A stretch of 64,000 nucleotides of DNA from a virus (lineage: Duplodnaviria; Caudoviricetes). The stretch is taken from IMG/VR virus record IMGVR_UViG_3300021959_007005. One strand, given 5' to 3'. The position numbers and the translations under genes are program-made. Of the stretch, positions 21,110 through 63,717 are shown piece after piece. Each line of letters opens with the position of its first letter. Positions within the stretch are counted from its first letter, which is position 1. The notes under the pieces were generated by a model. That model was not told where the DNA came from and made no database searches. It saw nothing but the letters and a program-made list of their open reading frames with translations.

Positions 21110-21125
21110 AAATCGAGGTATAATA

Positions 21126-22769: not shown

Positions 22770-22788
22770 AGTAATAGGAGTAAGTTTA

Positions 22789-30182: not shown

Positions 30183-30572
30183 ATGGGAAGACCACTAAAC
30201 AAGAGAAATTTCGGCGCACGAGCAGACGCTGGTGCCCAAATTGCACCAGCCGCATACACTACCCAACTATTTGGTAATGCTCATATAATCAAGCAAAAAG
30301 GTAGTAAGCGTTTTCTAGTAGCAACTGCGCTGTCTGGGGTCGATCAACCAGACCAAATTTGCAAACTAGTAACGGATGTACCAGCTGCTACTGGTGAAAT
30401 GGTTATCAAATGTAAAGATAGTGTGAACGGAACTTACTTTGTAAGTAAAATTTCTGGTAGAACTTGCACAGTAGTAGCAGATTCAGGAACACAGTTTGCA
30501 TCAAAAACAAAAGTACAGTGGAACCTCAGTGCCGCTGAAGCTGGCGTATCAGTTATACTAGACCTAGCATAA
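30183..30572 (+). CDS. MGRPLNKR-family putative virion protein, paralogue 2
   Basis: Tandem paralogue of 29704-30075. Confidence 0.75.
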   Translation: MGRPLNKRNFGARADAGAQIAPAAYTTQLFGNAHIIKQKGSKRFLVATALSGVDQPDQICKLVTDVPAATGEMVIKCKDSVNGTYFVSKISGRTCTVVADSGTQFASKTKVQWNLSAAEAGVSVILDLA

Positions 30573-33641: not shown

Positions 33642-34760
33642 ATGGAAATGAAAATAACTAAAGAACTGAAACAACTAGATAAAATGTTTACTAAGTCTGG
33701 CTACGACATACGAGTTGTAGGTGGTGCAGTAAGAGATCTCGCATTAGGTAAAGATCCAAAAGATATAGACCTTGCAACAAACGCAACCCCCACAGAAATG
33801 CAAAAAATGTTTGACAGCTCAGGCGTTAAGCATATACCGTCAGGCATTGAACATGGCACTATAACTGCCATAATCAACGGCGAGGAGTTTGAAATAACCA
33901 CACTAAGAGCAGACGTGGAAACAGACGGTAGGCATGCAGAAGTGGAGTTTGTACGTAGTTGGAAAGAAGATGCTAAACGCAGAGACTTAACGTACAATGC
34001 AATGAGCATGGATTTTGATGGTAAACTATATGATTACTTTGGTGGTATGGATGACTTACAAAACAAAGTAAGCCGTTTTGTCGGTGATCCTGCAGCACGT
34101 ATACAAGAAGATTATTTGCGTATATTAAGGTATTTCCGTTTCCAAGGAAGAATGGATACGCCAAAGTTTGAAAAAGATACAATGAAATCTATAGCAGATA
34201 ATGTTTCTGGACTAAAGCAGTTGAGTGTTGAACGTGTTTGGATGGAAATAAGCAAGATACTTAGTGGTGGAAATATACAGCAAGTACTTAGTGCTATGTC
34301 ACATACTGGTGTAACTAATTCTTTAAATTTACAAGTGCAAAATATAGATAAAGTACAAGATGGCGGAGATCCTATTATAAATCTTGCTAGAATAACTAAC
34401 GATGAATCAGTAGGCAAGCGTTGGAAGATGAGCAATGATGAAAAATCAAAGCTAGGGTTCCTAATACAAAACAAAGGGCAAACACACGATAAAAAGTGGT
34501 TTACTGATCAAATGGCAGACGGATTTAATAGAGATTTGTTGGATGCACTTGCTAGGTTTAATCATCAAGACGATATGATACAGCATGTTAAATCATTCAA
34601 AGCACCTGAGTTTCCAGTTACTGGAAATGACTTGATGAAACTAGGACATGCACGTGGTCCTGGTATAGGAAAAACGTTGCAGTCAATGAGAGATCAATGG
34701 AAAAAAGGTAACTTTGATTTAAGTAAAGACGATTTGCTAAAGAGTGTAAGTAAAGAATAA
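33642..34760 (+). CDS. cca: Class II CCA-adding tRNA nucleotidyltransferase
   Basis: VGGAVRD...DIDLAT; GIEHGT; EITTLR; EDAKRRDLTYNAM; RIQEDYLRILRYFRF; TTGACA at 33583. Confidence 0.9.
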   Translation: MEMKITKELKQLDKMFTKSGYDIRVVGGAVRDLALGKDPKDIDLATNATPTEMQKMFDSSGVKHIPSGIEHGTITAIINGEEFEITTLRADVETDGRHAEVEFVRSWKEDAKRRDLTYNAMSMDFDGKLYDYFGGMDDLQNKVSRFVGDPAARIQEDYLRILRYFRFQGRMDTPKFEKDTMKSIADNVSGLKQLSVERVWMEISKILSGGNIQQVLSAMSHTGVTNSLNLQVQNIDKVQDGGDPIINLARITNDESVGKRWKMSNDEKSKLGFLIQNKGQTHDKKWFTDQMADGFNRDLLDALARFNHQDDMIQHVKSFKAPEFPVTGNDLMKLGHARGPGIGKTLQSMRDQWKKGNFDLSKDDLLKSVSKE

Positions 34761-41124: not shown

Positions 41125-42849
41125 ATGGATAGTTTAACAGAAGCACAAATAATAGAAGCACAAGTACAAGAAATAATAGATGAAGCAGAACAACTCAATG
41201 AGTTCTTGCCACTAATACCATTGGCTATTTGGGCAGGTGGTGCTGCATGGACAGCCTACGATGTTTATCGTACTGCAAAACAATACAAAGCAGGTGAAAT
41301 TACCAAAGGTGAAGTTGCTAAACGAGTTGGTACTGATGTTGCATTAAGTATCGCTGGAGGAGCAATAGCCAAGGGTTTAATTAAAGGTGGAAAAGTTGGT
41401 TACGGCGTAATTAAAAAAGTAGTTGACAAAAGTAAAGAAAAGTTCGATGTAGTTGATCGAGCAAATAAAAGAGGGCGTACTACTAAGGATATAACAATTG
41501 GTGGTCAAAAAATAGTTGATCCTACTAAAGTAACTACAGCACGTGGTGCTGATGGTAAGATGAGAGCATTAACTAAAGCAGAGAAAAAAGCATTAGCAAG
41601 GGCTAGTGATACTAGAAGTACTGCCGCAAAAGCAATTGATGCGGTTTCTGCACCAGTTAAGGCGGTTACTGGGTTGGGTAAAGGTGGACTTGACAGAAAA
41701 ATGGGCACTGCTACAAGTAATGTTGTTAAAAAAATTACTGACCCCTTAATGAAAAAGAAAAATATTCCTACAGTAGCAATAGATCCTTTAACCAAAAAGT
41801 TTAAAAAATTAGATGGACCAATTGATGACAGAACTAGATTAGCTAAAGTTATTGACGCACCAAAAGCTGGACTGGATGCTCTAAGAAAAGTAGATGACTT
41901 TATTGGTGATATACCTGGCAACATTGCAAGAAAAACTATAGACACAGTAACACAGAATCCAATTGCTAAAGCAGAAAAAGCTAGACGTAAAGCAGCTAAA
42001 CAAATTAGAGCGGCGGATGCAGTCGCAGCAAGAGCCGCTAAAGAAATTGATAAGCAAATGCAGCAAGCAAAAGACTTGCGTAAACGTGATGCAACACAAC
42101 GTATTAGATCTGCTGATGCGGATGCGGCAGCTGCCGCTAAAAAAGCAGCAAAGAGTGCAGATGAATTTAAACGTAATGCAGCTCAACGTAATGCTAGTGC
42201 CGCAATGCGTAATGCAGATAACATCGCAGTTAAGCAAGCAACTAGGCAAGCAGCAGACCAAAAAGCAAATGCCGCCAAAAGAAGTGCATCAGCAGCAATA
42301 CGTAAAGCAGATAAAATTGCTACAGACAGAGCATCTGATGTAGCCGCATTTAAACGTAATGCAGCTCAAAGAACAGCTTCAACTAGGATGCGTAGTGCAG
42401 ATAAAATTGCTACTAGACGAGCTGATGATCTAGCAGTAAATGATAAAAGAAGAGCGGCAGCAGCCACAATTAGAAAAGCAGACTCAGATGCAATTAAAAA
42501 AGCAAAAGAGATAGAAATTGCTGCTAAAAAGAAACGAGCAGATGCTGTGGCAGCAAGAGCTGCTAAAAAAGCAGATGCAGAAGCACGTATTAAGAAAGCT
42601 GATGCCGCCGCAGCGAAGAGATTAGGCAAAAAGACAGATGCTGGTGAAATCGCTGCAAGAGTAGCTGCAAGACGTGCAGCCAGAAAAGTTGATGGTAAGA
42701 CAAAAATGGCCAAGCGTGTGGGAAGAAGAGTTGACAAATTAATTCCAGGCGGTAAATCTGGTGGTGGCGCTCCAGCAGCTTCATGGCAGTCATTTTCGCC
42801 AGTCGCAGTAAATGATCCACTAAATTTGTCAAGAGCTAATAAAGGGTAA
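41125..42849 (+). CDS. Lys/Arg/Ala-rich basic protein (histone-H1-like composition)
   Basis: CTAAATAA box; acidic N-tag ending LNE, hydrophobic FLPLIPLAIWAGGAAW, then FKRNAAQR.AS..MR.AD.IA repeats. Confidence 0.75.
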   Translation: MDSLTEAQIIEAQVQEIIDEAEQLNEFLPLIPLAIWAGGAAWTAYDVYRTAKQYKAGEITKGEVAKRVGTDVALSIAGGAIAKGLIKGGKVGYGVIKKVVDKSKEKFDVVDRANKRGRTTKDITIGGQKIVDPTKVTTARGADGKMRALTKAEKKALARASDTRSTAAKAIDAVSAPVKAVTGLGKGGLDRKMGTATSNVVKKITDPLMKKKNIPTVAIDPLTKKFKKLDGPIDDRTRLAKVIDAPKAGLDALRKVDDFIGDIPGNIARKTIDTVTQNPIAKAEKARRKAAKQIRAADAVAARAAKEIDKQMQQAKDLRKRDATQRIRSADADAAAAAKKAAKSADEFKRNAAQRNASAAMRNADNIAVKQATRQAADQKANAAKRSASAAIRKADKIATDRASDVAAFKRNAAQRTASTRMRSADKIATRRADDLAVNDKRRAAAATIRKADSDAIKKAKEIEIAAKKKRADAVAARAAKKADAEARIKKADAAAAKRLGKKTDAGEIAARVAARRAARKVDGKTKMAKRVGRRVDKLIPGGKSGGGAPAASWQSFSPVAVNDPLNLSRANKG

Positions 42850-42853
42850 TAAG

Positions 42854-44269
42854 ATGAAAAAAGATGCAAATAGTATACTAAAAAATATTTTTGATAAAGC
42901 CGCCAATGCGGTTAATGAAGGTTACAAAGTACTTCCTCCAATGGATGACAAGTACCAACCACGTGATGGTTTAGAAGGCCCGTTTACAACATTAAGTGGA
43001 AAAGTAGTATACTATGATCCAGGCGAGGGGGCATATTACGACCCAGATACTGATTTTTATATTTCATACGATGAGTACCAAGAACTAGATAAAGATTATA
43101 GTGGTATGAAAACCGAAGGTGTTGAAACAGATTATGAAAATGAGATTGATCAAATTATTGATGAGATAAAAGAGTTAGGAATAACAGATGTAGATGAAAT
43201 CGCCAGTGTTGTTGGAAACTTTATTGATAATGAAGATGACGCAGCGGAAGTATACGTAACTGTGTTAGACTTTTTGGGACTTGCAGAATCAATTAGCGAA
43301 GGTGCAATGGATGATGAGATTGCCGCATACTACAGGCAGTTAAAACTTCCAAATATGAAATCTTGGAAAAAATTAACAAAAAATGAAAATCTTGGAGGAT
43401 CTCCATTTAGAGCATCCGCTGCTAATGCTGAAGATTATGGCATGTTTAGTCAAGATGGTAATTATGAAGTTCAAGAGATTGTCGACGATGCATGTGGAAT
43501 GGTTAAAAGTGGTGAAGCTGATATTATGAAGGCAGTCGATGCAGCAATGCGAATGCTTACAGATCTAAGTGAAATGGGCGGTCACGAAGAAGCAGAAGAC
43601 ACCGCAGTACGTGATAGTGTTACACGAGCTATTTGGAATCGTTGTGATAATGACGATACTAACGAAGGGCATAGTCCACATAAAAAAGGTACTGCAAAAT
43701 ATAAAAAGCATATGGCTGCAATGCATGCTGAAGATAAAAAGAAAATGGTTAAGGATCCAAAAACAGGTAAGATGGTTCCAAGTTATGCAATAGACGGCAA
43801 AGGTGATAATGATCTTAAAGAGAAGGTATCAATTTCCCAAGTTAAAGAAAGTATCAATACTAAGTCCACAGACAAGAATCGCATAGTAGCGGATTATATT
43901 GGCGGATACTTAAATGGAAACCTTACTGAATCACAAGTTAAAGATGAAATTAAACATGTAGTAAGTCAAATACGCGAATCTGTTGATGCTAACGTAATAT
44001 ACACTAACATGCGTAAAACTAATATACAAGAATCTCTTGATAAAAAATTAATGGTAAGAGAAAGTATTGCACAACTCCAAAAAATTGTATCAGACAAGCA
44101 AATGATGCCAGTTAAATTTACTGACGGCAGTATGAAAATTGATATGACTACAGCAAATATAGTTCTAGATGCATACAAAAAAGTTAAGCCTGAAAATCAA
44201 CAAAAAATAGAAAAAATGATGGAAACAAAATACGGGTTTAAGCGTTTATTAGATATCATCTATAAATAA
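42854..44269 (+). CDS. Modular virion-type protein
   Basis: Several short modules separated by xNE/xKE/xRE; C-terminal VKFTDGSMKIDMTTANIVL domain. Confidence 0.7.
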   Translation: MKKDANSILKNIFDKAANAVNEGYKVLPPMDDKYQPRDGLEGPFTTLSGKVVYYDPGEGAYYDPDTDFYISYDEYQELDKDYSGMKTEGVETDYENEIDQIIDEIKELGITDVDEIASVVGNFIDNEDDAAEVYVTVLDFLGLAESISEGAMDDEIAAYYRQLKLPNMKSWKKLTKNENLGGSPFRASAANAEDYGMFSQDGNYEVQEIVDDACGMVKSGEADIMKAVDAAMRMLTDLSEMGGHEEAEDTAVRDSVTRAIWNRCDNDDTNEGHSPHKKGTAKYKKHMAAMHAEDKKKMVKDPKTGKMVPSYAIDGKGDNDLKEKVSISQVKESINTKSTDKNRIVADYIGGYLNGNLTESQVKDEIKHVVSQIRESVDANVIYTNMRKTNIQESLDKKLMVRESIAQLQKIVSDKQMMPVKFTDGSMKIDMTTANIVLDAYKKVKPENQQKIEKMMETKYGFKRLLDIIYK

Positions 44270-44871
44270 TGATTGCTGACAGTGCTGAAGATTTTGTATG
44301 GGCGAGTATTGACCCAGATGATATCTGGGTCATGGATAAACTAATACTGTCAAGAAAATTAGGGTACGTTTGTGGTCCAGTTGGGCTTGATGTTCCGATA
44401 CCAGGATATTATATTGTGCGACCATGTGTTAACATGTTAGGTCTAGGGTTAGGGACACGGCGGGTATGGATAGAAAAAGAAACTATGCATTTGCCATTAG
44501 GATATTTTTGGTGTGAATTCTTTGAGGGCAGACACCTTAGTGTAGATTATAACTATGGATTACAGCGGTTATGTGTTGAAGGATTTAAACCATTAGATAC
44601 ATTTACTAAATGGAGCGAATGGAAACGTACTACAGACTATGTAACCCGTCCTAATATATTACTTGACTTATTAAAAAGATACGAATGGATTAATTGTGAA
44701 TTTATTGGCGGCAATCTTATTGAAGTTCATCTAAGACACAACGAAGATTTTGACGGCGGTATTAATCATTTTATTCCAGTATGGGAAGGACAAGACACTA
44801 TTCCACCAAATGGATATCAATATAAAGATTATCCAGACGTACATGGACGTATAGGAGCGTTTATAAAATAA
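44269..44871 (+). CDS. Conserved hypothetical protein, possible ATP-grasp-like fold
   Basis: YIVRPCVNMLGLGLG...FWCEFFEGRHLSVDY...INCEFIGG resembles ATP-grasp motifs. Confidence 0.5.
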   Translation: MIADSAEDFVWASIDPDDIWVMDKLILSRKLGYVCGPVGLDVPIPGYYIVRPCVNMLGLGLGTRRVWIEKETMHLPLGYFWCEFFEGRHLSVDYNYGLQRLCVEGFKPLDTFTKWSEWKRTTDYVTRPNILLDLLKRYEWINCEFIGGNLIEVHLRHNEDFDGGINHFIPVWEGQDTIPPNGYQYKDYPDVHGRIGAFIK

Positions 44872-44898
44872 ATACATTTAGTATAAAAAGGAAAAACT

Positions 44899-45753
44899 AT
44901 GAGTAAATTTACATTTGACTTTAAAGGAAGATATGTAGCAGACATCTTACATCTTGGTAAAGATGACGCTATGGAATGGTTAGGCGCAATGCAAGATGTA
45001 TTACCTAAATATGACATTAATACTCCAGAAAGAGTTGCTGGATTTATGGCTCAAACTGGGCATGAATCCAATGGATATAAGGTACTTACTGAAAACTTAA
45101 ACTACAGTGCAAAAGCACTCGATGCTATATTTGGCAAATATTTTAAACGAGCTGGGAGAGATGCAAATGAATATCATAGACAGCCTGAAAAAATTGCGAA
45201 CGTTATTTACGCAAACAGAATGGACAACGGTGATACCAATTCCGGTGATGGCTGGAGATTTAGGGGCGGTGGCATACTGCAACTTACAGGTAGAAGCAAT
45301 TATACAAGATTTGGAGAATCAGTTGGAATGAGTGCTGAAGAAGCAACTGACTATGTACGCACAAAAGAAGGTGCTCTTGAGAGTGCATGTTGGTTCTGGA
45401 AAACAAACAACTTAAACAAATACTGTGATAATAATGATATCACAACATTGTCTAAGCGTGTTAATGGTGGTACAATTGGTCTTGAAGATCGTATTAAACA
45501 TTGGAATCATGCAATGGAATTGTTTACTGGAGTAGCAGCACCACACGTAGAAGAGAAGCTAGACATTAAACTTATTAAAAAAGGTAGTAGGGGATCGCTT
45601 GTTAAAGCAATGCAAGAAGTGCTTGGACTTGATGCTGATGGCGACTTTGGCCCAGGCACAGAACGTGCGGTCAAATCTTGGCAAGCTGAAAATGGACTAA
45701 CACCTGATGGCATTGTAGGACCAAAAACACTAGCTAAGATGGGTATTGAATAA
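44899..45753 (+). CDS. Endolysin: glycoside hydrolase family 19 plus C-terminal peptidoglycan-binding domain
   Basis: FMAQTGHES...ENLNYS...FRGGGILQLTGRSNY...VNGGTIGLEDR; PG_binding_1 DGDFGPGTERAVKSWQ...LTPDGIVGPKT. Confidence 0.92.
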   Translation: MSKFTFDFKGRYVADILHLGKDDAMEWLGAMQDVLPKYDINTPERVAGFMAQTGHESNGYKVLTENLNYSAKALDAIFGKYFKRAGRDANEYHRQPEKIANVIYANRMDNGDTNSGDGWRFRGGGILQLTGRSNYTRFGESVGMSAEEATDYVRTKEGALESACWFWKTNNLNKYCDNNDITTLSKRVNGGTIGLEDRIKHWNHAMELFTGVAAPHVEEKLDIKLIKKGSRGSLVKAMQEVLGLDADGDFGPGTERAVKSWQAENGLTPDGIVGPKTLAKMGIE

Positions 45754-51838: not shown

Positions 51839-51992
51839 AGTTATTGAACCAGATATTGAAAATACTGGAGATGCAGAAAATATGACAGAGCTAGCAAAAT
51901 CTATGGATTGGAAGCTATGGGAAATCTTGCAAATTATGCAGAGATTAGAAAAGAAAATTGGGGCTGATGGTTTAGTTCTCGACGATGGCTGA
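51822..51992 (+). CDS. Hypothetical 56-aa protein
   Basis: Hand-translated MVKKIRVIEPDIENTGDAENMTELAKSMDWKLWEILQIMQRLEKKIGADGLVLDDG; GGAG SD. Confidence 0.6.
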   Translation: MVKKIRVIEPDIENTGDAENMTELAKSMDWKLWEILQIMQRLEKKIGADGLVLDDG

Positions 51993-52431
51993 TAATTATG
52001 AACCCTACGAAGCATATATGCGACGGAGATCAAAAGAAGAGGATGCAAAAATGAATAATGCTAAACGTAGTATTTGGGTAACTTTCACTAAAGAAGGTAT
52101 CCATAAGTATCCAGCAGCATTAGACGATCCTGCACTAGCAACAGGAGATGAGTATGATGTAAGTTTCTTAGGATACCCACATCGACATACTTTTCATTTT
52201 AAAGTACAAATACAAGTAACACACAACGATAGAGATATTGAATTTATTCAATTCAAGCGTTGGTTAGAGAATCTTTATAAAGAAGATATTCTCGAACTAG
52301 ATTACAAGTCATGTGAAATGATTGCAGATGACTTATATCTACACATCAACAGCAAATACCCCGGCCGGTTTGTTGTCATTGATGTCGCCGAAGATGGCGA
52401 AAACGGCTGTCAAATTGTTTATCCAGCATAA
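51985..52431 (+). CDS. QueD-like (6-pyruvoyltetrahydropterin synthase T-fold) protein
   Basis: IWVTF..EGIHKY...HRHTFHFKV...DIEF...SCEMIA...V.EDGENG: T-fold His motif and terminal E; clustered with folE and a TGT-like gene. Confidence 0.65.
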   Translation: MADNYEPYEAYMRRRSKEEDAKMNNAKRSIWVTFTKEGIHKYPAALDDPALATGDEYDVSFLGYPHRHTFHFKVQIQVTHNDRDIEFIQFKRWLENLYKEDILELDYKSCEMIADDLYLHINSKYPGRFVVIDVAEDGENGCQIVYPA

Positions 52432-54276: not shown

Positions 54277-55044
54277 ATGCGTGATATTGTTTTAGTAACT
54301 GGTGGATTTGATCCGTTACACTCAGGACATATTGCTTATTTTAAAGCAGCTCGGGAACTAGGTGATATCTTAGTTGTCGGGCTGAATAGCGACAGTTGGC
54401 TTACCCGTAAAAAAGGTAGACCATTTATGTCTTGGAATGAACGTAGTAGTATTATTGGCGAACTTGAGTGTGTTGATGAGGTTATTGGATTTAACGATGA
54501 TGATGGCACCGCTGTTGATGCAATTTCAGAAATGATTTCAGAATATCCGAATGATAATATTATATTTGCCAATGGCGGAGACCGTAAAAAAGGCACAACA
54601 CCAGAACTAGAATTTGCTAAACAATTCGATAACGTTACATTTGAGTTTGGTGTTGGTGGTGAAGATAAAAAGAACTCTAGTAGTTGGATACTAAAAGACT
54701 GGAGCCAACCTACTACAAAAAGAGCATGGGGTACTTATACAGTACTTCACAATGGCCCAGGCTGGGCAGTAAAAGAACTAGCATTTGGTACTGAAACTCC
54801 ACTAAGTGATCAACGACATTTTATTCGTAGTGAACATTGGCATGTAGTTGAAGGCACTATACAAATGGATTTAGAGTTTGACAATGGCGAAAAATCTAGT
54901 ACAATATATACATCAGGCGAAAGTATTGACATTCCTGTTTTAACTTGGCACAAAGCGACTAACATTGGTAGCACAACAGCAAAAGTTATTGAAGTTTGGA
55001 TGGGCGATGAATTAACAGAAGATGATATTGAAAGAAGAGATTAA
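54277..55044 (+). CDS. Bifunctional nucleotidyltransferase (RfaE/HldE-type) plus cupin (mannose-6-P isomerase-like)
   Basis: TGGFDPLHSGH, VVGLNSD, FANGGDR, SSSWIL; cupin R.WG.Y...QRH..RSEHWHVVEG. Confidence 0.85.
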   Translation: MRDIVLVTGGFDPLHSGHIAYFKAARELGDILVVGLNSDSWLTRKKGRPFMSWNERSSIIGELECVDEVIGFNDDDGTAVDAISEMISEYPNDNIIFANGGDRKKGTTPELEFAKQFDNVTFEFGVGGEDKKNSSSWILKDWSQPTTKRAWGTYTVLHNGPGWAVKELAFGTETPLSDQRHFIRSEHWHVVEGTIQMDLEFDNGEKSSTIYTSGESIDIPVLTWHKATNIGSTTAKVIEVWMGDELTEDDIERRD

Positions 55045-56105
55045 TGAACACAATTTGGATTATACCAATTGAGCCTATTGACCAGCGTTATACTAAACAG
55101 TGGTACGATAATATTCCACTTACATTAAAAGCAAAAATTGCAGAACGTGAACTTAATTATTTTGTACAAACTATTGATGGTGAAGATTTTAAACCTGATG
55201 TGAGAACTGAAGGTGCCTTTCTTGACTTTGGTGCAACTAATGTATACAAAGCAACACAAGCGGCAGAAGTAAGTCGTATGTTTAGCAATGGCAAAGTTAA
55301 AGCAGGTGACAAATTTCTGATAACTGATGCTTGGAACTTTATCATCACTCCAATCAAATACATGAGTGACTTATTAGATATTCCAGTAGAGATACATAGT
55401 ATTTGGCATGCTGGTGCATATGATCCTACAGACATACTTGGCTATAAAATGAGTAAGCCTTGGCCTTCACATGTTGAAAAAAGTTGGTATTATAGTAGTG
55501 ATTATAATTACTTTGCAACAAATTTCCACAAAAATATGTTTTTACGCAACTTGGATATTCCAGTAGAAGATCATGGAAGAGCAATACGTAGTGGGCAACC
55601 GCACGAGCTTATTGTTGATAGTTTAGTAAAGCATCAAAATACACCAAAGAGTGATAAAATTATGTGGCCACATAGGTGGAATGATGATAAGCAACCGGAT
55701 ATTGCATTGGCATTAGCACAAGATTTTGATATGGTTATTACACAAAAAATGAACCTTGACAAATCACAGTACTATGCTAAAATGGGAGAAAGTAAATTAA
55801 TTTTTAGTTGTGCATTACATGAAAACTTAGGTATCAGTGTTATGGAAGCAGTACTAACTGGTGCTATTCCTATTGTACCAGATCGTGCAAGCTATAGTGA
55901 GATGTATTTGCCAGAATTTAAGTACCCATCTGAATGGACTGCAAGTTTTGAATCATACAAACAACATAGGGATTCACTAGTAGGATTTATAAAAGAAAAA
56001 CTAATCATGTTTGACAAATACCAAGACGTATTGGTTAAGCAACGTAACATTCTTATTGAAAATTATCTAAATAGCAGTGTTATGATAAACAACATACTAC
56101 AATAA
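55044..56105 (+). CDS. GT-B fold glycosyltransferase (GT4-like)
   Basis: C-terminal HENLGISVMEAVLTGAIPIVPDRASYSEM (E-x7-E motif); WPHRWNDDKQP. Confidence 0.75.
   Translation: MNTIWIIPIEPIDQRYTKQWYDNIPLTLKAKIAERELNYFVQTIDGEDFKPDVRTEGAFLDFGATNVYKATQAAEVSRMFSNGKVKAGDKFLITDAWNFIITPIKYMSDLLDIPVEIHSIWHAGAYDPTDILGYKMSKPWPSHVEKSWYYSSDYNYFATNFHKNMFLRNLDIPVEDHGRAIRSGQPHELIVDSLVKHQNTPKSDKIMWPHRWNDDKQPDIALALAQDFDMVITQKMNLDKSQYYAKMGESKLIFSCALHENLGISVMEAVLTGAIPIVPDRASYSEMYLPEFKYPSEWTASFESYKQHRDSLVGFIKEKLIMFDKYQDVLVKQRNILIENYLNSSVMINNILQ
56020..56035. promoter_or_regulatory. Orphan copy of the early-promoter dyad core inside the GT gene, upstream of folE
   Basis: ACCAAGACGTATTGGT is identical to the cores at 11678 and 27699; TTGACA at 56011. 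Confidence 0.45.
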
Positions 56106-56121
56106 AAAGGAACATAGTATA

Positions 56122-56811
56122 ATGACAAAGACTTCCGATTTGATTAAGCAACGACTTAAAGATCAAAATATTAGACATTGGGCTGGTGACAACATTAGCT
56201 CAGTATTAGAAGATGGTGATAAACAAAAACTTATTGATGAAGCGACAACTAGTTTTGAAGATGTATTAGACTCATTAATTATTGACAGGGATAATGACCC
56301 AAATAGTCATGGAACTGCCAAGCGTCTTGCTAAGATGTATTTTAATGAATTAATGAGTGGACGGTATGAGCCAGCACCTAGTGCAACAGCATTTCCAAAT
56401 GATAGTGCTGAACGTTATGAAGGTATGCTAGTTGTACGTAGTGAATTAAGAAGCATGTGTTCACATCATCATCAGCCAGTAGCAGGAGTTGCATATATTG
56501 GCATTATCGCCTCTAATAAATTAATTGGACTAAGTAAGTATACAAGAATTGCACAGTGGTGTGCAAGACGTGGAACTTTACAAGAAGAGTTGGCAACCGA
56601 CATTGCTCGAGAAATTATGAAAGCAACAGAAAGTGAAAATGTAGGGGTCTACATTCAGGCTACCCATGGCTGTTGTGAAAATCGAGGTATTATGGCACAT
56701 AGTAGTTTAACACAAACTACAGTACTTAAAGGTAGCTTCCATAATGATCCTGGATGCAAAAAAGAATTCATGGATAATATTAAACTACAACAAGAATATG
56801 CTCCAAGATAA
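56122..56811 (+). CDS. folE: GTP cyclohydrolase I
   Basis: RSMCSHHHQP, GLSKYTRI, QEEL, ATHGCCENRG. Confidence 0.95.
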   Translation: MTKTSDLIKQRLKDQNIRHWAGDNISSVLEDGDKQKLIDEATTSFEDVLDSLIIDRDNDPNSHGTAKRLAKMYFNELMSGRYEPAPSATAFPNDSAERYEGMLVVRSELRSMCSHHHQPVAGVAYIGIIASNKLIGLSKYTRIAQWCARRGTLQEELATDIAREIMKATESENVGVYIQATHGCCENRGIMAHSSLTQTTVLKGSFHNDPGCKKEFMDNIKLQQEYAPR

Positions 56812-56837
56812 ATGTAAACAATTAATAAGGAATAAAG

Positions 56838-57125
56838 ATGTATACCCGTTTAAGCATTAACGATATCAAATGGGATCTAATAAAGATCATTGAACCATTT
56901 GATGGTATCCTCGAAAATAAGCCACGTGGAGAAAAGTCGATCCGTCGACTTTTTGAAGCGTATCTTAAAGACTTACGTTCAGATCAACAAATATCAGATT
57001 TTAACGTATATAGTAACATTCGTGACACAGCGATTACTTACGATGTTTCTATAAAAGTGGCATCAGATAGATCGCCACGAAAACTAAAAATCCATGTTGG
57101 CACATATCAACACCCATGGATATAA
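56838..57125 (+). CDS. Hypothetical protein, paralogue of 52441-52764
   Basis: Shares the motifs listed for 52441-52764; AAGGA SD. Confidence 0.7.
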   Translation: MYTRLSINDIKWDLIKIIEPFDGILENKPRGEKSIRRLFEAYLKDLRSDQQISDFNVYSNIRDTAITYDVSIKVASDRSPRKLKIHVGTYQHPWI

Positions 57126-57197
57126 TTTTTAAATTGCATTAGTAATTTATATAAGGGTGAGGCATTAGTTAAAGAATACCCTTCAGAAAGGAAAAAA

Positions 57198-58274
57198 ATG
57201 AAACTATTAAAACTATTGGCTGCTACACTAGTAGTGGCAGCTGTAGGCGTTTCTGCAAGTGCAGATGCTCCTAAGGATAAAGCAAAAGTCGCATTTATTT
57301 ACGTTGGCCCAACAGGTGATCACGGTTGGACATATCGTCACGATATTGGTCGTCAGCAAGTAGAAGAAGCATACGGAGATCGTGTCGAAACTACGTTTGT
57401 TGAAAGTGTAGCAGAAGGTGCTGACGCTGAACGTGTAATGACACAAATGGCACTACAGGGCGCAGACATTATTTTTGCGACATCATTTGGATATATGGAT
57501 CCAATAATGAACGTAGCAAAGAAGTTTCCAAACGTAAAGTTTGAACATGCTACAGGTTATAAATCATCTGACAACGTTGCTAACTATGGTTTGAAACTAT
57601 ACCAAGCAAGACACGTACAAGGTGTTGTAGCAGGTATGATGACAAAAACAAACAAAATTTGTTATATTGCTTCATTCCCAATTCCAGAAGTTATGCGTGA
57701 GATTAACACATTCTTCTTGGGCGCACGTAAGTATAATCCAGATGTAGAACTATCAATTGCGTGGGTTTACACATGGTATGATCCAGGCAAAGAAAAAGAT
57801 GCGGCTGTGGCTCTGATCCAACAAGGTTGTGACATTGTAGCACAACACACTGACTCACCTGCTCCGCTACAAGCGGCAGAACAAGCAGGTGTACTTGGTT
57901 TTGGACAAGCAAGTGATCAAATGAAGTTTGCTCCTAACGCACAATTGACAGCAACTATTGACAATTGGGGTCCTTACTACATCGACAAAGTAGGACAAGT
58001 ACTAGATGGTACATGGGAAACAGGCGATTACTTTGGACATATGAACGAAGGTGCTGTACAAATGGCACCATTTGCTAATATGCCAGCTGATGTACAAGCA
58101 GAAGCACAACGTGTAAAAGATGCTATTAGCGCAGGCGAGTTGTTTGGATTTACAGGTCCAATTAACAAGCAAGACGGAACAGTGTTCCTGAAAGAAGGTG
58201 AAGTAGCAACGAGACAGCAACTAGACACTATGATGTTTTATGTCGAAGGCATCACATCACAGGTACCTGGTTAA
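57198..58274 (+). CDS. BMP-family (basic membrane protein/PnrA-like) ABC substrate-binding protein
   Basis: Signal peptide; VAFIYVGPTGDHGWTYRHDIGR, IIFATSFGY, KFEHATGY, SFPIPEV.REIN.F.LG, WYDP.KE. Confidence 0.92.
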   Translation: MKLLKLLAATLVVAAVGVSASADAPKDKAKVAFIYVGPTGDHGWTYRHDIGRQQVEEAYGDRVETTFVESVAEGADAERVMTQMALQGADIIFATSFGYMDPIMNVAKKFPNVKFEHATGYKSSDNVANYGLKLYQARHVQGVVAGMMTKTNKICYIASFPIPEVMREINTFFLGARKYNPDVELSIAWVYTWYDPGKEKDAAVALIQQGCDIVAQHTDSPAPLQAAEQAGVLGFGQASDQMKFAPNAQLTATIDNWGPYYIDKVGQVLDGTWETGDYFGHMNEGAVQMAPFANMPADVQAEAQRVKDAISAGELFGFTGPINKQDGTVFLKEGEVATRQQLDTMMFYVEGITSQVPG

Positions 58275-59137
58275 TGATTCCAGTAATTGATTTACAAGCA
58301 TCAGACGCTTTAGATCGCATTGACGAAGCCTACACAACAGTAGGCTTCGCAGTGTTTACAAATGCGTTAACTGACACACATCAACAAGACATCAAGTCTT
58401 GGCAAGAACAAATGAAAGCATTCTTTGAATTGCCAATGGATACAAAACAAAGCTATCCTTACAACGCAGATACTAACTTAGGTTACAGTATGGTAGGTGA
58501 CGAAAATGTAGACCCTACAGCACCCAAGGATATTAAAGAAAGTTTTAATTATAACAATACACGTATGCCAGATGATCTTTGGCCTACTGAACTAAATGGA
58601 TTTAAATCAACAGCATTACAAAGTATAGATATTGCCGATAAACTTACACTAAAGATATTAGAAAAGTTTGATACTATCCTAGATAGCGGAACTACACTAG
58701 TAGATTCACATTTACAACCTTTTAATACAACAAGGGTCATTCATTATCCAGCATATGATGGACCAGTACAAGATAAACAAATGCGTATAGGAGAACATAG
58801 TGACTACGGTACTATTACTTTACTTTGGCAAATTAACGATGTACCAGGACTCGAAGTTCAAGACCTTGATGGAACATGGCATGCAGTACCATATGAAAAG
58901 GATGCAGTAATTTGTAACATAGGCGACTTGTTACAACGATGGACTAATGACTATTTCAAGTCAACCAAGCACAGAGTTGTAAACAGTCACATACATCAAC
59001 AACGCTATAGTATGCCACACTTTGTAGATCCTACACCGGGTACTATTGTTGATAATCTGCGTTTCCACGAAGCGCCTAAATATCCGCCAATTGAATCAAA
59101 AGAGTATTTGATGTGGCGCCTAGCACAGAGTTATTAA
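58274..59137 (+). CDS. Isopenicillin-N-synthase-like 2OG-Fe(II) oxygenase
   Basis: IPVIDL, GEHSDYGTITLL (HxD), NIGDLLQRWTND.FKST.HRV, RYS. Confidence 0.9.
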   Translation: MIPVIDLQASDALDRIDEAYTTVGFAVFTNALTDTHQQDIKSWQEQMKAFFELPMDTKQSYPYNADTNLGYSMVGDENVDPTAPKDIKESFNYNNTRMPDDLWPTELNGFKSTALQSIDIADKLTLKILEKFDTILDSGTTLVDSHLQPFNTTRVIHYPAYDGPVQDKQMRIGEHSDYGTITLLWQINDVPGLEVQDLDGTWHAVPYEKDAVICNIGDLLQRWTNDYFKSTKHRVVNSHIHQQRYSMPHFVDPTPGTIVDNLRFHEAPKYPPIESKEYLMWRLAQSY

Positions 59138-59138
59138 T

Positions 59139-59654
59139 ATGAAACAATATATAAAAAGTTACATGGACTTTCCTAAAGACGGTATTGATTTTAAATGTAC
59201 CGCAAGTTTATGTGCATCACAGGATGGGTTTGAACTAGCCAACAATTTTATATACAGTAATTTATTGAAGTATTGTCCAGTAGATAAAATTATTGGTATT
59301 GATGCTAGAGGTTTTATCTTTGCAAGTGTGTTTGCACACAGGACTAGAGGACCACTTGTGCTTGCACGTAAACCAGGGAAGTTGCCAGGTAGTACTATTA
59401 GTCGTGAGTATGAACTAGAGTACGGAACCAACGAACTAGTAATGCAACGAGATAGTTTTGATAAGGGCGACACTGTTCTTATTATAGATGACTTAATAGC
59501 AACTGGTGGAACTATGAAAGCAGTTATTGAAATGTGTGATGAAATAGAAGTAACCATAAAAGCAGTTGCATGTATAATGGACTTACCTAAACTTGGCGGA
59601 AGTGATTATGTTAAGAATCGTAACATACCATTTTACGCAGGTGTAAATTATTAA
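59139..59654 (+). CDS. apt: Adenine phosphoribosyltransferase
   Basis: DFPKDGIDF, GIDARGF, RKPGKLPG, YELEYG, IIDDLIATGGT. Confidence 0.92.
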   Translation: MKQYIKSYMDFPKDGIDFKCTASLCASQDGFELANNFIYSNLLKYCPVDKIIGIDARGFIFASVFAHRTRGPLVLARKPGKLPGSTISREYELEYGTNELVMQRDSFDKGDTVLIIDDLIATGGTMKAVIEMCDEIEVTIKAVACIMDLPKLGGSDYVKNRNIPFYAGVNY

Positions 59655-60860
59655 ATGGCAAACTTAGTAGTAATAGGAACCCAATGGGGCGATGAAGGCA
59701 AAGGCAAAGTAGTTGATTTACTAGCAGAACAAGCAGATGTTATAGTACGTTTTCAAGGAGGACATAACGCAGGGCATACACTGGTAATAGGTGACAAAGT
59801 TTTTAAACTTAGCTTACTGCCCAGCGGTATAGTAAGAGAAGATAAAGTTTCGGTTATTGGTAACGGTGTTGTATTGAATCCTTGGAAACTATTAGAAGAG
59901 ATTGAACTAGTACAGTCACAAGGTGTAAACATTGATCCTAGTAGATTGATGATTGCAGAAAACACTCCGCTAATTTTACCCTATCACCAAGCATTAGATC
60001 AGTCAAGAGAAGAAGTAACTGATAAAAAAATCGGTACTACTGGCAGAGGCATTGGTCCTGCATATGAAGATAAAGCAGGAAGACGTGCAATTAAAGTAGG
60101 AGATCTTAGAGATGATGAACTACTCAAACATAGACTAGCAATAGCCGCAGAGTATCACGACTTTGACCAACAACAGTTGTTTAATCAGCTAGCACATATC
60201 AAAAAACATGTATTACAATATGTAAATGATGTACCACTTTATCTAAATCAAAAGACTGACTTAGGATTTAATATATTATTCGAAGGCGCACAAGGAAGCA
60301 TGCTAGATGTAGACTTTGGCACTTATCCTTATGTAACAAGCTCAAACACACTAGCAGGTATGGCTAGTATAGGCTCAGGGGTACCGCATAATAAGATACC
60401 AAATGTAATTGGTATAACAAAAGCATACACAACTCGAGTTGGCGAAGGGCCAATGACGACTGAATTATTTGATGATGTTGGAGAGCATCTAGCAAGTGTA
60501 GGTAAAGAAAAAGGTACAGTAACTGGTAGAAGCAGACGCTGTGGATGGTTTGATGTATCACAAGTAAAACGAACATGTATGTTAAATGGTGTTACTGGCA
60601 TAGCATTAATGAAAATAGACGTACTCGATAAACTCGAGACTATTAAGATTTGTACTGACGTACACAACGGAATACCAGTGTATGAAGAGCTACCTGGTTG
60701 GTGTACTAGTACAATAGGTATAACTGATTATTCAGATTTACCAAGACTTGCTCAAGAGTATATTAACCGTATTGAGCAATTAACACAAACCGAAGTAGTT
60801 TTGATATCAACTGGACCAGAAAGAGATCAAACTATTTTATTACAAGATTCTTTCTTTTAG
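59655..60860 (+). CDS. purA: Adenylosuccinate synthetase
   Basis: QWGDEGKGK, RFQGGHNAGHT, IGTTGRGIGPAY.DK, FEGAQG..LD.DFGTYPYVTSS, GTVTGRSRRCGWFD. Confidence 0.95.
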   Translation: MANLVVIGTQWGDEGKGKVVDLLAEQADVIVRFQGGHNAGHTLVIGDKVFKLSLLPSGIVREDKVSVIGNGVVLNPWKLLEEIELVQSQGVNIDPSRLMIAENTPLILPYHQALDQSREEVTDKKIGTTGRGIGPAYEDKAGRRAIKVGDLRDDELLKHRLAIAAEYHDFDQQQLFNQLAHIKKHVLQYVNDVPLYLNQKTDLGFNILFEGAQGSMLDVDFGTYPYVTSSNTLAGMASIGSGVPHNKIPNVIGITKAYTTRVGEGPMTTELFDDVGEHLASVGKEKGTVTGRSRRCGWFDVSQVKRTCMLNGVTGIALMKIDVLDKLETIKICTDVHNGIPVYEELPGWCTSTIGITDYSDLPRLAQEYINRIEQLTQTEVVLISTGPERDQTILLQDSFF

Positions 60861-60894
60861 AGAAAGAAATAACACTAACAGGGAGAAATATATT

Positions 60895-61515
60895 ATGTTA
60901 GGATTTTTTAAAGATATTGACAGAAGCATGTTGCTGAAACTAGTAGCACTACATGTAATTGTTATCGTAGTAAGTAACGCACTAGTAAGTATTCCAGTAG
61001 AAATTTTTGGAATTAAACTTACCTGGGCTGCATTTACATTTCCGTTAGTTGTACTAGCAACTGACTTAACAGTACGAATGTTAGGTAAAAACATTGCACG
61101 TTCAACAATTGCGGCAGCTTATCCGTTGGCAATTATTGGCTCAATTTTAGTTGTAATGGCGGAGGGTGCACCAAGTAGTGTAGCAATGCGTATTGGTTTA
61201 GCTAGTGCAACAGCATATGCAGTTGGCACAATGTTGGATGTATATGTATTTCAATACCTACGTGAAAACTTTATGAAGCATTGGTGGATTGCGCCAGCAG
61301 TATCAACTGTAGCGGCAAACGTCATTGACACATACACATTCTTTTGGGTTGCGTTCAACAACAGTGCAGACGAATATATGGCTGCAAACTGGGTAGAGAT
61401 CGCAGGATCACAAGTTGTGATTAAGATTGCAGTAGGACTTATTATCTTCCTACCAGCATACGGTGTGCTATTACGTTACTTAAATGGTAAACTTTCAGAA
61501 GAAGACGCCGAATAA
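60895..61515 (+). CDS. yhhQ: Queuosine-precursor (preQ0/preQ1) transporter, YhhQ/VUT family
   Basis: SN.LV..P...G..LTW.AF.FP...LATDLTVR..G...AR; AS..AY..G..LDV.VF..LR...WW.AP..ST...N..DT..FF..AF, matching the YhhQ pattern as I recall it. Confidence 0.88.
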   Translation: MLGFFKDIDRSMLLKLVALHVIVIVVSNALVSIPVEIFGIKLTWAAFTFPLVVLATDLTVRMLGKNIARSTIAAAYPLAIIGSILVVMAEGAPSSVAMRIGLASATAYAVGTMLDVYVFQYLRENFMKHWWIAPAVSTVAANVIDTYTFFWVAFNNSADEYMAANWVEIAGSQVVIKIAVGLIIFLPAYGVLLRYLNGKLSEEDAE

Positions 61516-61526
61516 TACAAAATTAA

Positions 61527-61553
61527 AAACGGTGGGGGAGATCCCCGCCGTTT
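61527..61553 (+). terminator. GC-rich hairpin, probable terminator
   Basis: AAACGGTGGGG-gagat-CCCCGCCGTTT. Confidence 0.65.
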
Positions 61554-61570
61554 AATATAAGGATAATATA

Positions 61571-62290
61571 ATGAAAATTAAATATGAAGACCATGATATA
61601 CTTTATCCATTTGGTGAATATATTTATAGATCAAAAGTAGACGCTGATGGTCTTAAATTTATGCAAGACTTAGCTGAATCCTCAAGGGAAGGCGATGATG
61701 CTAGTAAATCTTTAGTTGGAAATATAAAAGAACAACGACATGGCATGATTAAAAATCAACAAGATGTAAATAACTTTGATAAAATTTTTCGTCCACATTT
61801 AAAAAACTATATGGATCAAATTAACAGAACGGCTAATTTTGTCTTAGAAGAAGATTCTGAACGTTCTGAGCATGAAAGAGAAAATACACCATTTTGGAAA
61901 ATTGTTAGTGGTGATTATGAAAAACTTAGTTATTCGTTAAACCAAGGACCTTGGTTTAATTATATGAAAAAATATGAATTTAATCCATTACACAATCATC
62001 ATGGAGAAATAAGTGCAATATGTATGGTAAAGGTACCTGAGGAAATTCAAAAAGAAGCAGAGAATGATGAAGATCCAAATTGGAGAGCTGGTGGAAAATT
62101 AGAGTTTGTTAGTGCAAACGGCCAAGCATCACCACATAGGGTTGTTTCAAGAGAGGCTGATGTATATATGTTTCCATCTATACTGAGACATCAAGTTTAT
62201 CCTTATAAAAGTGATGTTGAACGAATTACATGTAGTTGGAATTATTATAATATTAACTACCCACCCTTGCAGGAATCATCAAATGAGTAA
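61571..62290 (+). CDS. Putative 2OG-Fe(II) oxygenase (phage type)
   Basis: WFNY...FNPLHNHHGEISA...GKLEF...MFPS.L.HQVYP...ERITCSWN. Confidence 0.75.
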   Translation: MKIKYEDHDILYPFGEYIYRSKVDADGLKFMQDLAESSREGDDASKSLVGNIKEQRHGMIKNQQDVNNFDKIFRPHLKNYMDQINRTANFVLEEDSERSEHERENTPFWKIVSGDYEKLSYSLNQGPWFNYMKKYEFNPLHNHHGEISAICMVKVPEEIQKEAENDEDPNWRAGGKLEFVSANGQASPHRVVSREADVYMFPSILRHQVYPYKSDVERITCSWNYYNINYPPLQESSNE

Positions 62291-62471
62291 TGAAATACAA
62301 GCTAGAATGTTAGAGCTATGTGAGCCAATTGAACGACAAATTATGATGTGCGATAACAGAGAAGATATCTTAATGATGGCATGCGTTATGCTAGATAAGG
62401 TTAAAGTTATGCTTGACAGTCAAATTGGTGTTAAAGGAAGACGTGAAATTATAGATGGTGCAAATAAGTAA
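62283..62471 (+). CDS. Hypothetical protein
   Basis: Start reassigned to 62283 (MSNEIQARML), AGGA SD. Confidence 0.6.
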   Translation: MSNEIQARMLELCEPIERQIMMCDNREDILMMACVMLDKVKVMLDSQIGVKGRREIIDGANK

Positions 62472-63164
62472 ATGTATTTTATCAGTGCGCCATTTGGCAA
62501 TTATTTACAGTACACAAACTTTCTAAGTGGCAAACCAATAGTCAGTGTTACTGGAACATTTACGGTGAAGCCACGTCCTGGACTAGCAAAACAAATTATA
62601 AAAACACTTAGGTATACTAGAACAGGCTGGCGCAACAAACTAGGTTTGCGTAACCCAGGAATATTTAAGGGGTTGGACAACACTGCACCACACAATGTAA
62701 TGAGTATTGCTAGTTTGGAACCAAATGATTGGCGTATACTATATGAAATAGTGCCCAAGCATCAGAATGTAGAACTTAACATAAGTTGCCCAAATGTAGA
62801 TGAACATCCAGACTTAACTAAAGCATTTGCAAAAGATCAACGCTTCTGGTGCATTGTAAAAGTACCACCAACTATAACAAACAAACAGATTGACAAAATA
62901 GTTAAACTAGGCTATAATCAAATACATGCAAGCAATACTATTCCAACAGCGAAAGGTGGACTTAGTGGTGATGTAATTGTACCACACACTTTGAGAATAC
63001 TAGAATACATAAAAAGTACACATCCTCATGTTGAAGTTATCGCAGGCGGCGGAGTAAAAGATAAAGCTAGTGTTGATAGATATATTAACGCTGGAGCAGA
63101 TCATATTAGTATAGGCAGTGTATGTTTTACTCCTTGGCGTATTAAAGGAATTATAAATGATTAA
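62472..63164 (+). CDS. Dihydroorotate dehydrogenase-like FMN enzyme (compact form)
   Basis: NKLGLRNPG, ELNISCPN, VKVPP, SNT, GGLSG, IAGGGV, AGAD.I.IGS. Confidence 0.8.
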   Translation: MYFISAPFGNYLQYTNFLSGKPIVSVTGTFTVKPRPGLAKQIIKTLRYTRTGWRNKLGLRNPGIFKGLDNTAPHNVMSIASLEPNDWRILYEIVPKHQNVELNISCPNVDEHPDLTKAFAKDQRFWCIVKVPPTITNKQIDKIVKLGYNQIHASNTIPTAKGGLSGDVIVPHTLRILEYIKSTHPHVEVIAGGGVKDKASVDRYINAGADHISIGSVCFTPWRIKGIIND

Positions 63165-63717
63165 GAAACATTATTACAGTTGGCAAGATATTGAAAATAT
63201 GTGTAGTAGTATTGTATTACAAATGTATGCTGACAATTGGCGTCCGGATTATATTGTAGGACTTACTCGTGGAGGGAATGTACCTGCTACTATTATTAGT
63301 AACATGACAGGCATTCGTTGTGAAGCACTTAAAGTAAGTTTGCGAGATGATGAAGTAGGACCAGAAAGTAACCTATGGATGTCTGAAGATGCATTTGGAT
63401 ATAACGATCCAGACAAATCTGGTATTACTGGTGCACGATGGGATATTAAACTTCGTAAGAATATTCTTATTGTAGATGATATCAATGATACAGGTGCAAC
63501 ATTCAATTGGATTATAAAAGATTGGCAAGCAAGTTGTTTCCCCGAAGAAGAAAATGGTTGGAATAGTGTATGGAACAATAATGTTCGATTTGCCACATTA
63601 ACAGACAATTTGGCTAGTGAATTTACAGAGCATTGTGCTTACACATGTCACGAAATTAATAAAGCAGAACAAGATGTTTGGCTAGTTTATCCTTGGGAAA
63701 ACGTAGGAGAATATTAA
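63157..63717 (+). CDS. Type I phosphoribosyltransferase (purine salvage, Gpt/Hpt-like)
   Basis: YIVGLTRGG.VPA; ILIVDDINDTGAT; WLVYPWE. Confidence 0.85.
   Translation: MIKKHYYSWQDIENMCSSIVLQMYADNWRPDYIVGLTRGGNVPATIISNMTGIRCEALKVSLRDDEVGPESNLWMSEDAFGYNDPDKSGITGARWDIKLRKNILIVDDINDTGATFNWIIKDWQASCFPEEENGWNSVWNNNVRFATLTDNLASEFTEHCAYTCHEINKAEQDVWLVYPWENVGEY

Follow-up and report, generated by a model that had tools for sequence, protein, structure and literature searches.

Here we analyzed a 64,000-nucleotide stretch of DNA, referred to as the window throughout, from an uncultured marine giant phage (IMG/VR record IMGVR_UViG_3300021959_007005) with respect to its gene yhhQ, which encodes a predicted membrane transporter of the YhhQ (QPTR) family and lies among genes for 7-deazaguanine DNA modification. 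We find that yhhQ is an optional accessory part of this cluster, and that the cluster itself is predicted to be of the DpdL type and to hold its own genes for synthesis of the base. An original prediction, made from the sequence of the window, had proposed that the phage may salvage queuosine precursors from the environment for DNA modification and could thereby compensate for queE and queC genes absent at least from the window. The association of the transporter with DNA modification is retained here, the compensation for missing enzymes is not. With moderate confidence we regard the phage YhhQ as a working permease for a 7-deazaguanine base that serves as an optional booster of DNA modification.

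yhhQ encodes a full-length member of the YhhQ family

The reading frame at positions 60895-61515 was confirmed, at the level of sequence, as a true full-length YhhQ/QPTR family member, in agreement with the original prediction. Its product matches the Pfam family Vut_1 (PF02592) with 88.9 bits (cut-off 27.2) over 149 of the 152 profile positions, and the NCBIfam model TIGR00697 ('queuosine precursor transporter') with 118.1 bits against a cut-off of 50.95. It can be aligned end to end with YhhQ from Salmonella (43% identity over 93% of the protein). About 50 alignment columns are at least 97% conserved across phage, Bacteroidota and enterobacterial YhhQ proteins; the phage protein keeps all residues conserved in the family and retains the motifs N28, F-x-F-P, ATDLT-R, R-I-x-x-A-S, WW-AP, IDT and LP-YG. 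An AlphaFold2 model calculated from 16 sequences (pLDDT 81.7, pTM 0.77) contains six long helices (residues 10-31, 45-63, 65-89, 94-117, 132-154 and 160-205). The best neighbour of this model in the ESM Atlas is an all-viral Vut_1 cluster (TM-score 0.82). Its best fold look-alikes in the PDB are the S-components RibU, ThiT and BioY of energy-coupling factor (ECF) transporters (TM-scores 0.5-0.6, weak E-values), and a sequence search of the PDB yielded no relative.

The surrounding cluster is predicted to be of the DpdL type

Metagenome contigs that are 99.9-100% identical to the window (L107-L111 and L114; L107 99.98%) widened the region in view, which on the numbering of the window runs from about -18.7 kb to +84 kb. 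Judged by its gene content, the cluster is of the DpdL type known from Cellulophaga phage phiST, with FolE, QueD-like, QueE-like and DpdL proteins predicted and no QueC found. In the published DpdL route, GTP is converted to 7-carboxy-7-deazaguanine (CDG) by FolE, QueD and QueE, followed by a proposed decarboxylation to 7-deazaguanine; DpdL is distinguished by the motif LxxxHRHxF, which replaces the CxxxHGH of QueD (PMC10516641). The DpdL homologue of the window is 54% identical to its ACP17 homologue. Because DpdL is encoded here, the missing QueC fits the published route from CDG to 7-deazaguanine and does not constitute a gap to be filled by import. FolE is 55% identical to that of Vibrio phage 2.275.O. 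As had been noted originally, yhhQ lies near both folE and the dpdA-like gene, whose ends are located 4.08 kb and 6.6 kb upstream of it, respectively.

Profile searches of the open reading frames (ORFs) of at least 100 aa between 2.8 and 64 kb of the window gave no match to QueC, QueD, QueE or QueF, and tblastn of the window with phage QueC, QueD, QueF and Gat queries gave none either. The original prediction was thus correct in that queE and queC are missing from the window; a QueE-like gene lies, however, just beyond its end, and the lack of QueC is expected in the DpdL route. The top five NCBIfam matches of the QueE-like protein, at 36-47 bits and short of the respective cut-offs, are to QueE models throughout, its sole sequence matches in the PDB are three QueE structures, and the gene is also found by tblastn with QueE from PSTCR7. 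The protein carries the radical S-adenosylmethionine (SAM) cysteines C31-x3-C35 ... C86 ('GCDTY'), with about 50 residues inserted ahead of the third cysteine, an arrangement of which no earlier description is known to us, and its gene is followed by SnoaL-like, SAM synthetase and Fe-S assembly genes. On the opposite side of the window, the QueD-like gene forms part of a tandem T-fold pair (L114:6045-6946, window-equivalent -12723 to -11822) together with a paralogue that lacks the catalytic cysteine and has no family match.

G001, the IMG/VR record closest to the window, measures 78 kb and has a completeness rating of 22%, from which a genome size of about 350 kb follows. QueC and QueF were not found in the window, G001 and the phage's own extra contigs, a search that for this genome took in about 110 kb altogether. 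Searches of G001 with PF06508 and PF01242 gave no match, with G001 stopping short of the upstream QueD-like gene. Two candidates were rejected. A radical-SAM ORF near 76.6 kb of G001, considered as queE, is a twitch-domain protein. A short QueC-like PP-loop protein of 195 aa in the IMG/VR relative G002 (L094:1498-2085, minus strand; motifs SGGADS and CKECWWC; PF06508 41.8 bits, C-terminal part only), which also occurs in L039, L041, L042 and L043 at a distance of about 7 kb from yhhQ, was dismissed as the missing QueC, since the window, G001 and the phage's own contigs contain no homologue of it. As a side observation, the twitch-domain protein of G001 adjoins a PtlD-like oxygenase and a desaturase, and the relatives G002, G003 and G004 (170-307 kb) have 13-23 matches to the radical-SAM family PF04055 per record, mostly in ORFs of 300-590 aa, which is unusually many for a phage.

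The 503-aa DpdA-like protein, a member of the tRNA-guanine transglycosylase (TGT) superfamily, is presumed to be the DNA guanine transglycosylase of the cluster. Homologues were found in PA5oct-like phages, Phosso and Vibrio phage 2.275.O. Regarding the question of the DpdA3 subfamily, comparison with phiST gp042 gave an hhalign probability of only about 1%, and the match to the NCBIfam model tgt_general is weak; a search of the PDB with the DpdA-like profile produced no sequence match.

yhhQ is an optional part of the cluster

The distribution of yhhQ was assessed by seeding searches of IMG/VR with YhhQ (at least 132 contigs, 79-99% identity) and with the DpdA-like protein (at least 591 contigs). 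The best 80 loci of either search were then scored, with neighbours counted within 10 kb. DpdA-seeded loci contain DpdL in 61, FolE in 50 and a QueE-like gene in 30 of the 80 cases, and yhhQ in only one; a Vut_1 gene is likewise absent from all 15 long records with the DpdA-like gene (53-165 kb). The same cluster without yhhQ is therefore common in relatives and evidently works without it. Together with the presence of QueE-like, QueD-like and DpdL genes in the phage, this speaks against the idea that import compensates for absent queE and queC.

Conversely, 32 of the 80 yhhQ-seeded loci hold DpdA-like, DpdL, FolE or QueE-like genes, a linkage that supports the original prediction in part. yhhQ has cluster genes on both sides in 27 of these 32 loci, at a median distance of 38 bp to the nearest one, and occupies at least four different slots (between DpdL and GT, GT and PRT, FolE and PRT, and PRT and QueE). 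Two further genes recur with the cluster: that for a Gpt-like phosphoribosyltransferase (PRTase), PRT186, in 25 yhhQ-seeded and 36 DpdA-seeded loci, and that for a conserved 353-aa protein in 29 and 48, respectively (80 loci each). PRT186 is the immediate neighbour of yhhQ in L016, L017, L082, L083 and L066. Beyond these viral loci, more than 4400 metagenome proteins are related to YhhQ at E <= 1e-10.

The yhhQ loci without deazaguanine genes (L018-L023, L035-L048 and similar ones; about half of the fragments) carry genes for a UvsW-like helicase, a small cupin, Kdo-8-P synthase, CMP-Kdo synthetase and methyltransferases. The DpdA-like profile found no match in 12 records with such 'non-cluster' loci; all of these are fragments, and no conclusion was drawn from them.

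Selection on yhhQ and its predicted origin

None of the 44 distinct viral yhhQ sequences has a disrupted reading frame, and the median pairwise ratio of nonsynonymous to synonymous divergence (dN/dS) is 0.12 over 848 pairs, with dS often reaching 1-1.7. Among the viral relatives, YhhQ is about 83% identical, compared to 72% for FolE, 58% for PolB and 43% for the DpdA-like protein. Recent horizontal spread as the cause of the high identity of YhhQ was discarded, because dS is near saturation; low dN/dS combined with high dS instead indicates strong constraint.

In a maximum likelihood tree the marine viral YhhQ proteins form one clade (support 97/96), which is joined with YhhQ from marine Bacteroidota (100/100). 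A deletion of 9-10 residues in the loop between helices 3 and 4 is common only to these two groups. The yhhQ genes of PSTCR7 and Vid5, located beside queE, and of Vibrio phage 2.275.O, located between queF and queC, branch together with gammaproteobacterial YhhQ. According to this tree, phages have captured yhhQ at least twice, each time among deazaguanine genes. The sister relationship of the marine viral clade to Bacteroidota YhhQ offers a lead; the sampling of cellular sequences is limited by the search method, and it is not to be read as a host assignment.

yhhQ lies in a variable uptake and salvage slot

Directly upstream of yhhQ and on the same strand, genes for a Bmp/PnrA-like periplasmic binding protein, a 2-oxoglutarate (2OG)-Fe(II) oxygenase, adenine PRTase (APRT) and adenylosuccinate synthase (PurA) are tightly packed, with 34 nt separating purA from yhhQ. 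Together with yhhQ they make up a predicted purine uptake and salvage block. The whole stretch of 6.3 kb between folE and the PRT186 gene contains a small ORF, the four genes just mentioned, yhhQ, a second 2OG oxygenase gene, a small ORF and a gene resembling that of dihydroorotate dehydrogenase. In the closest relatives with respect to the DpdA-like protein, L142 and L151 (91-93% identity), the PRTase gene comes immediately after folE and the block is absent; thus, the stretch is lineage-specific. In G001 the slot that matches window positions 57182-59655 (41180-45481; L008:181-4482) carries, in place of the Bmp, 2OG oxygenase and APRT genes, those for a complete ATP-binding cassette (ABC) importer (NMT1/THI5-like binding protein, ABC ATPase and BPD_transp_1 permease), and in addition genes for a 2OG oxygenase and an arylsulfotransferase-like propeller. 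Uptake and salvage genes thus seem to be exchanged for one another in the region between folE and purA.

The hairpin that directly follows the yhhQ stop codon has a calculated folding energy of -19.8 kcal/mol (z = -4.39), and none of 200 shuffled sequences was equally stable. A scan for consensus terminators did not flag it, its T-run being too short, and a promoter scan returned fewer sites than in shuffled sequence. The transcription unit probably ends at this hairpin. In metatranscriptome libraries of three studies, contigs span yhhQ without mismatch (e.g. run X5, positions 60656-62669), and in runs X5, X12 and X17 the window was matched at 100% identity within positions 56122-63717, including the neighbours of yhhQ, with purA only thinly represented in X5 and X12. 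These contigs hint at transcription of yhhQ; carry-over of DNA is possible and they give no expression level, and they are not counted as evidence here.

Features of the yhhQ region. Positions are those of the window unless stated otherwise.
Feature	Position	Strand	Characteristics
QueD-like gene	on L114, 12.7 kb ahead of window start		motif CKFLHGY; 46% identical to phiST QueD
DpdL homologue (proposed CDG decarboxylase)	51985-52431	+	motif LGYPHRHTF; 32% identity to phiST gp040 over full length, E 2e-18
TGT-superfamily 'DpdA-like' protein, 503 aa	52764-54275	+	invariant DSGGFQ at residues 106-111; tgt_general E 6.5e-4 over residues 102-305
Nucleotidyltransferase-cupin protein			upstream of yhhQ
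Conserved 353-aa cluster protein	55044-56105	+	no Pfam or NCBIfam match
FolE, GTP cyclohydrolase I	56122-56811	+	first step of 7-deazaguanine synthesis; PF01227 134.5 bits
Bmp/PnrA-like periplasmic binding protein	57198-58274	+	signal peptide; Pfam/NCBIfam
2OG-Fe(II) oxygenase	58274-59137	+	Pfam/NCBIfam
APRT	59139-59654	+	Pfam/NCBIfam
PurA	59655-60860	+	Pfam/NCBIfam
Shine-Dalgarno-like AGGGAG	60880-60885	+	9 nt ahead of the yhhQ ATG; direct sequence reading
yhhQ/QPTR gene (COG1738, Vut_1)	60895-61515	+	206 aa, ATG start
Terminator-like hairpin	61527-61553	+	directly 3' of yhhQ stop; G+C-rich 11-bp stem, 5-nt loop, then UUUAAUAU
Gpt-like (xanthine/guanine-type) PRTase, PRT186	63157-63717	+	NCBIfam xanthine PRTase 35.7 bits, below cut-off
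QueE-like gene, 298 aa	window-equivalent 65235-66131 (L107:12079-12975)		3.7 kb downstream of yhhQ, just beyond window end

Pairing of yhhQ with a PRTase gene in marine Bacteroidota

In two marine Bacteroidota lineages that carry the nearest cellular yhhQ (L222:5547-6597 and L224:5556-6600), this gene overlaps an upstream PRTase gene of 145-154 aa to form a two-gene operon. Both PRTases align over their full length with PRT186 of the phage (E 8e-20 and 1e-18), compared to only E 0.002 over 48 residues for the phage APRT. This operon, with a PRTase homologous to that of the phage cluster, is to our reading of the sequences a new lead. Among 301 sampled Bacteroidota genomes there were only three matches, too few to gauge its spread. 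The sister Bacteroidota encode QueA in 4/4, TGT in 1/4, QueC in 0/4 and, apart from one fragment, QueF in 0/4 genomes, the assemblies measuring only 1.0-1.6 Mb; such a gene set is the pattern of an organism that salvages queuosine precursors. In G314, yhhQ adjoins queF.

We tentatively consider that this YhhQ subclade and the Gpt-like PRTase could form a two-part carrier module, in which the admitted base, guanine or 7-deazaguanine, would be phosphoribosylated and not used free; this is one possibility among others and far from assured. In the Bacteroidota sister clade and in several phage loci, the gene for a small membrane carrier of a base adjoins or overlaps that for a purine PRTase. This arrangement recalls the xpt-pbuX operon of Bacillus subtilis, in which a base permease and a PRTase serve salvage. 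The transporter families differ, however, and no riboswitch was found at the yhhQ of the window, so that the resemblance is one of working and not of membership. Nucleotides of 7-deazaguanine are made by ToyH and TubC in deazapurine antibiotic pathways.

Proposed role of the phage YhhQ

In the role that we favour, a YhhQ/QPTR-type permease with six transmembrane helices, similar to ECF S-components and with no ATPase partner encoded alongside, would be made during infection and inserted into the inner membrane of the host, where it would admit, from outside the cell, a 7-deazapurine base with the shape of guanine. Orthology makes preQ1 or preQ0 the most likely base, and leaked 7-deazaguanine or CDG a possible one. 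The imported base would join the pool that the TGT-like DpdA exchanges into DNA, next to the product of the phage's own predicted de novo route through FolE, the QueD-like and QueE-like proteins and DpdL to the DpdA-like protein. Since the phage has this route of its own, yhhQ would be an optional booster in a variable uptake and salvage slot and not a replacement for missing enzymes. All experimentally characterised members of the family carry 7-deazaguanines: the E. coli protein takes preQ0 and preQ1 (PMC5372724), that of C. trachomatis takes queuine, and that of B. henselae takes both (PMC11570991). For the phage protein we infer the substrate, the direction of transport and the use of the base by DpdA.

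Several points weigh against this assignment. The transport activity of the phage protein is predicted from its family, and its score with the E. coli-type equivalog model for preQ0/preQ1 transporters (NF008406) is 196.5 bits, under the cut-off of 252. No preQ1 riboswitch reached the gathering score in an Rfam scan near yhhQ, in the window and in L107 and L114. In a DpdL-type cluster in which QueC and QueF are not found, the phage's own route does not pass through preQ0 or preQ1. Ordinary purine-salvage genes lie in one transcription unit with the yhhQ of the window, and in the sister clade yhhQ overlaps a Gpt-like PRTase gene that is dispensable for the salvage of queuosine precursors. About 60% of the yhhQ-seeded viral loci contain no deazaguanine gene within 10 kb. 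Finally, deletion of yhhQ in phage CAjan left its preQ0 modification unaltered (Kot 2020, PMC7544227).

In a competing reading, the subclade would import ordinary purines such as guanine, xanthine or hypoxanthine, which PRT186 would trap as GMP or XMP. GTP would thereby be fed both as the precursor of the FolE-derived 7-deazaguanines and into the replication pool, and the PRTase would also recycle guanine released by DpdA. The overlap of yhhQ with a PRT186 homologue in two Bacteroidota lineages and the five phage loci with PRT186 directly beside yhhQ are consistent with such a role, as is the position of yhhQ at the end of a unit with APRT, PurA and the Bmp purine-nucleoside binding protein, for which G001 has a whole ABC importer; moreover, yhhQ of E. 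coli is under PurR control, and the authors who identified it note that other purines may also be transported by the family (PMC5372724). None of the COG1738 proteins is known to transport an ordinary purine, however, and the sister Bacteroidota, which have QueA and lack QueC and QueF, need an importer of queuosine precursors, for which yhhQ is the sole candidate seen. In the phages, PRT186 is kept in the cluster with or without yhhQ, so that their pairing may reflect mere shared membership of the cluster. We consider the import of ordinary purines possible but rather doubtful.

Alternatively, imported preQ1 or preQ0 could be passed to the TGT of the host (and QueA), raising queuosine in host or phage tRNAs without any role in DNA. 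No other physiological role has been demonstrated for the YhhQ family (PMC5372724, PMC11570991), a role in tRNA would suit the majority of loci without nearby deazaguanine genes for DNA, and phages with preQ0 genes but without DpdA have been proposed to boost queuosine in tRNA (Hutinet 2019, PMC6884629). It leaves unexplained, however, why yhhQ occurs at four or more slots inside a DNA-modification cluster and was separately captured beside queE and queC. In addition, precomputed Pfam annotation revealed no bacterial-type TGT, QueA or QueG/H in the window or the phage's own contigs. A role confined to tRNA thus seems unlikely to us. That yhhQ is a passenger without a role for the phage, or a membrane protein for another use such as superinfection exclusion, would agree with its patchy distribution and with the CAjan ΔyhhQ phage lacking a phenotype (PMC7544227); the invariably intact frame, the low dN/dS, the retention of every family-conserved residue and the thousands of metagenome relatives make this highly improbable.

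Further features of the phage genome

PolB of the phage is 43-47% identical to PolB from Phosso, Atu_ph07, CBB and GAP32, and a megablast of the 11-kb region against cultured phages gave no match. Elsewhere in the window, two Rfam 'freshwater-2' RNA motifs (29625-29706 and 30103-30185, plus strand; 66.4 and 71.7 bits, gathering score 49.9) each precede a small ORF. A PhoH-like gene (minus strand), a DnaJ homologue (21918-22769) and a ClpB/ClpA-type double-AAA chaperone (22834-25032) are clustered at 19267-25032. A nucleotidyltransferase of the CCA-adding/poly(A) polymerase family (33642-34760; PF01743 129 bits) follows an ORF with a weak PARP-like match.

Comparison with known systems and significance

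The phage protein shares with YhhQ from E. coli and Salmonella (Zallot 2017, PMC5372724) the family and length class, the conserved motifs and six transmembrane helices. It differs in scoring below the NF008406 cut-off, in belonging to another clade of the tree, in lacking the loop between helices 3 and 4 and in being phage-encoded. The occurrence of yhhQ in phage dpdA clusters and the proposal of uptake have been published (Hutinet 2019, PMC6884629), and GenBank records annotate the gene in Vid5, PSTCR7 and Vibrio phage 2.275.O. In CAjan, Vid5 and PSTCR7 (PMC6884629, PMC7544227) yhhQ likewise lies inside clusters with de novo genes, of the type folE-queD-queE-(Gat-)queC-dpdA. Their YhhQ proteins are, however, only 38-40% identical to that of the window and branch with enterobacterial YhhQ, which points to a separate capture, and these clusters have QueC and insert preQ0 or G+, in contrast to the DpdL-type cluster of the window without a detected QueC. 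Vibrio phage 2.275.O (MG592671, 349 kb) is also a giant marine phage with a related DpdA-like protein and has yhhQ in a queF-yhhQ-queC-gat-folE cluster; its YhhQ is 43% identical and of the gammaproteobacterial type, and QueC together with QueF gives a preQ1 route in which an imported precursor would be a true intermediate.

Closest in gene content is Cellulophaga phage phiST (PMC10516641), with which the phage shares FolE, a QueD of 46% identity, a QueE-like protein, the DpdL motif and the lack of a detected QueC. Unlike the window, phiST has no yhhQ annotated in the 14 kb of its genome that were compared, tblastn with the YhhQ of the window hit no Cellulophaga phage, and the main text of the paper on its 2'-deoxy-7-deazaguanosine does not mention YhhQ (PMC10516641). 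Furthermore, phiST gp042 comprises 259 aa as compared to 503 aa of the window transglycosylase, with no significant profile match between them, and the cluster of the window adds the Gpt-like PRTase and sugar genes. What is new in our work is the link of yhhQ to a DpdL-type cluster without detected QueC in abundant marine giant phages, its accessory and mobile placement, and the pairing with a PRTase.

Replacement of guanine by 7-deazaguanines lets phages escape restriction enzymes and Cas9, and it therefore matters where the base comes from. Overall, our analysis corrects the reading of import as a replacement for missing enzymes and presents the yhhQ transporter as a widespread, strongly conserved, optional add-on to a DpdL-type cluster predicted to be self-sufficient. 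The practical weight of this is modest, since the only phage yhhQ knock-out so far had no phenotype. The pairing with a Gpt-like PRTase may show what the YhhQ subclade carries and why a purine-salvage enzyme sits in these clusters. If the two do form a carrier module, it would close a guanine-recycling loop that feeds GTP to deazaguanine synthesis, or make 7-deazaguanine nucleotides, and the YhhQ family would have a role beyond queuosine salvage.

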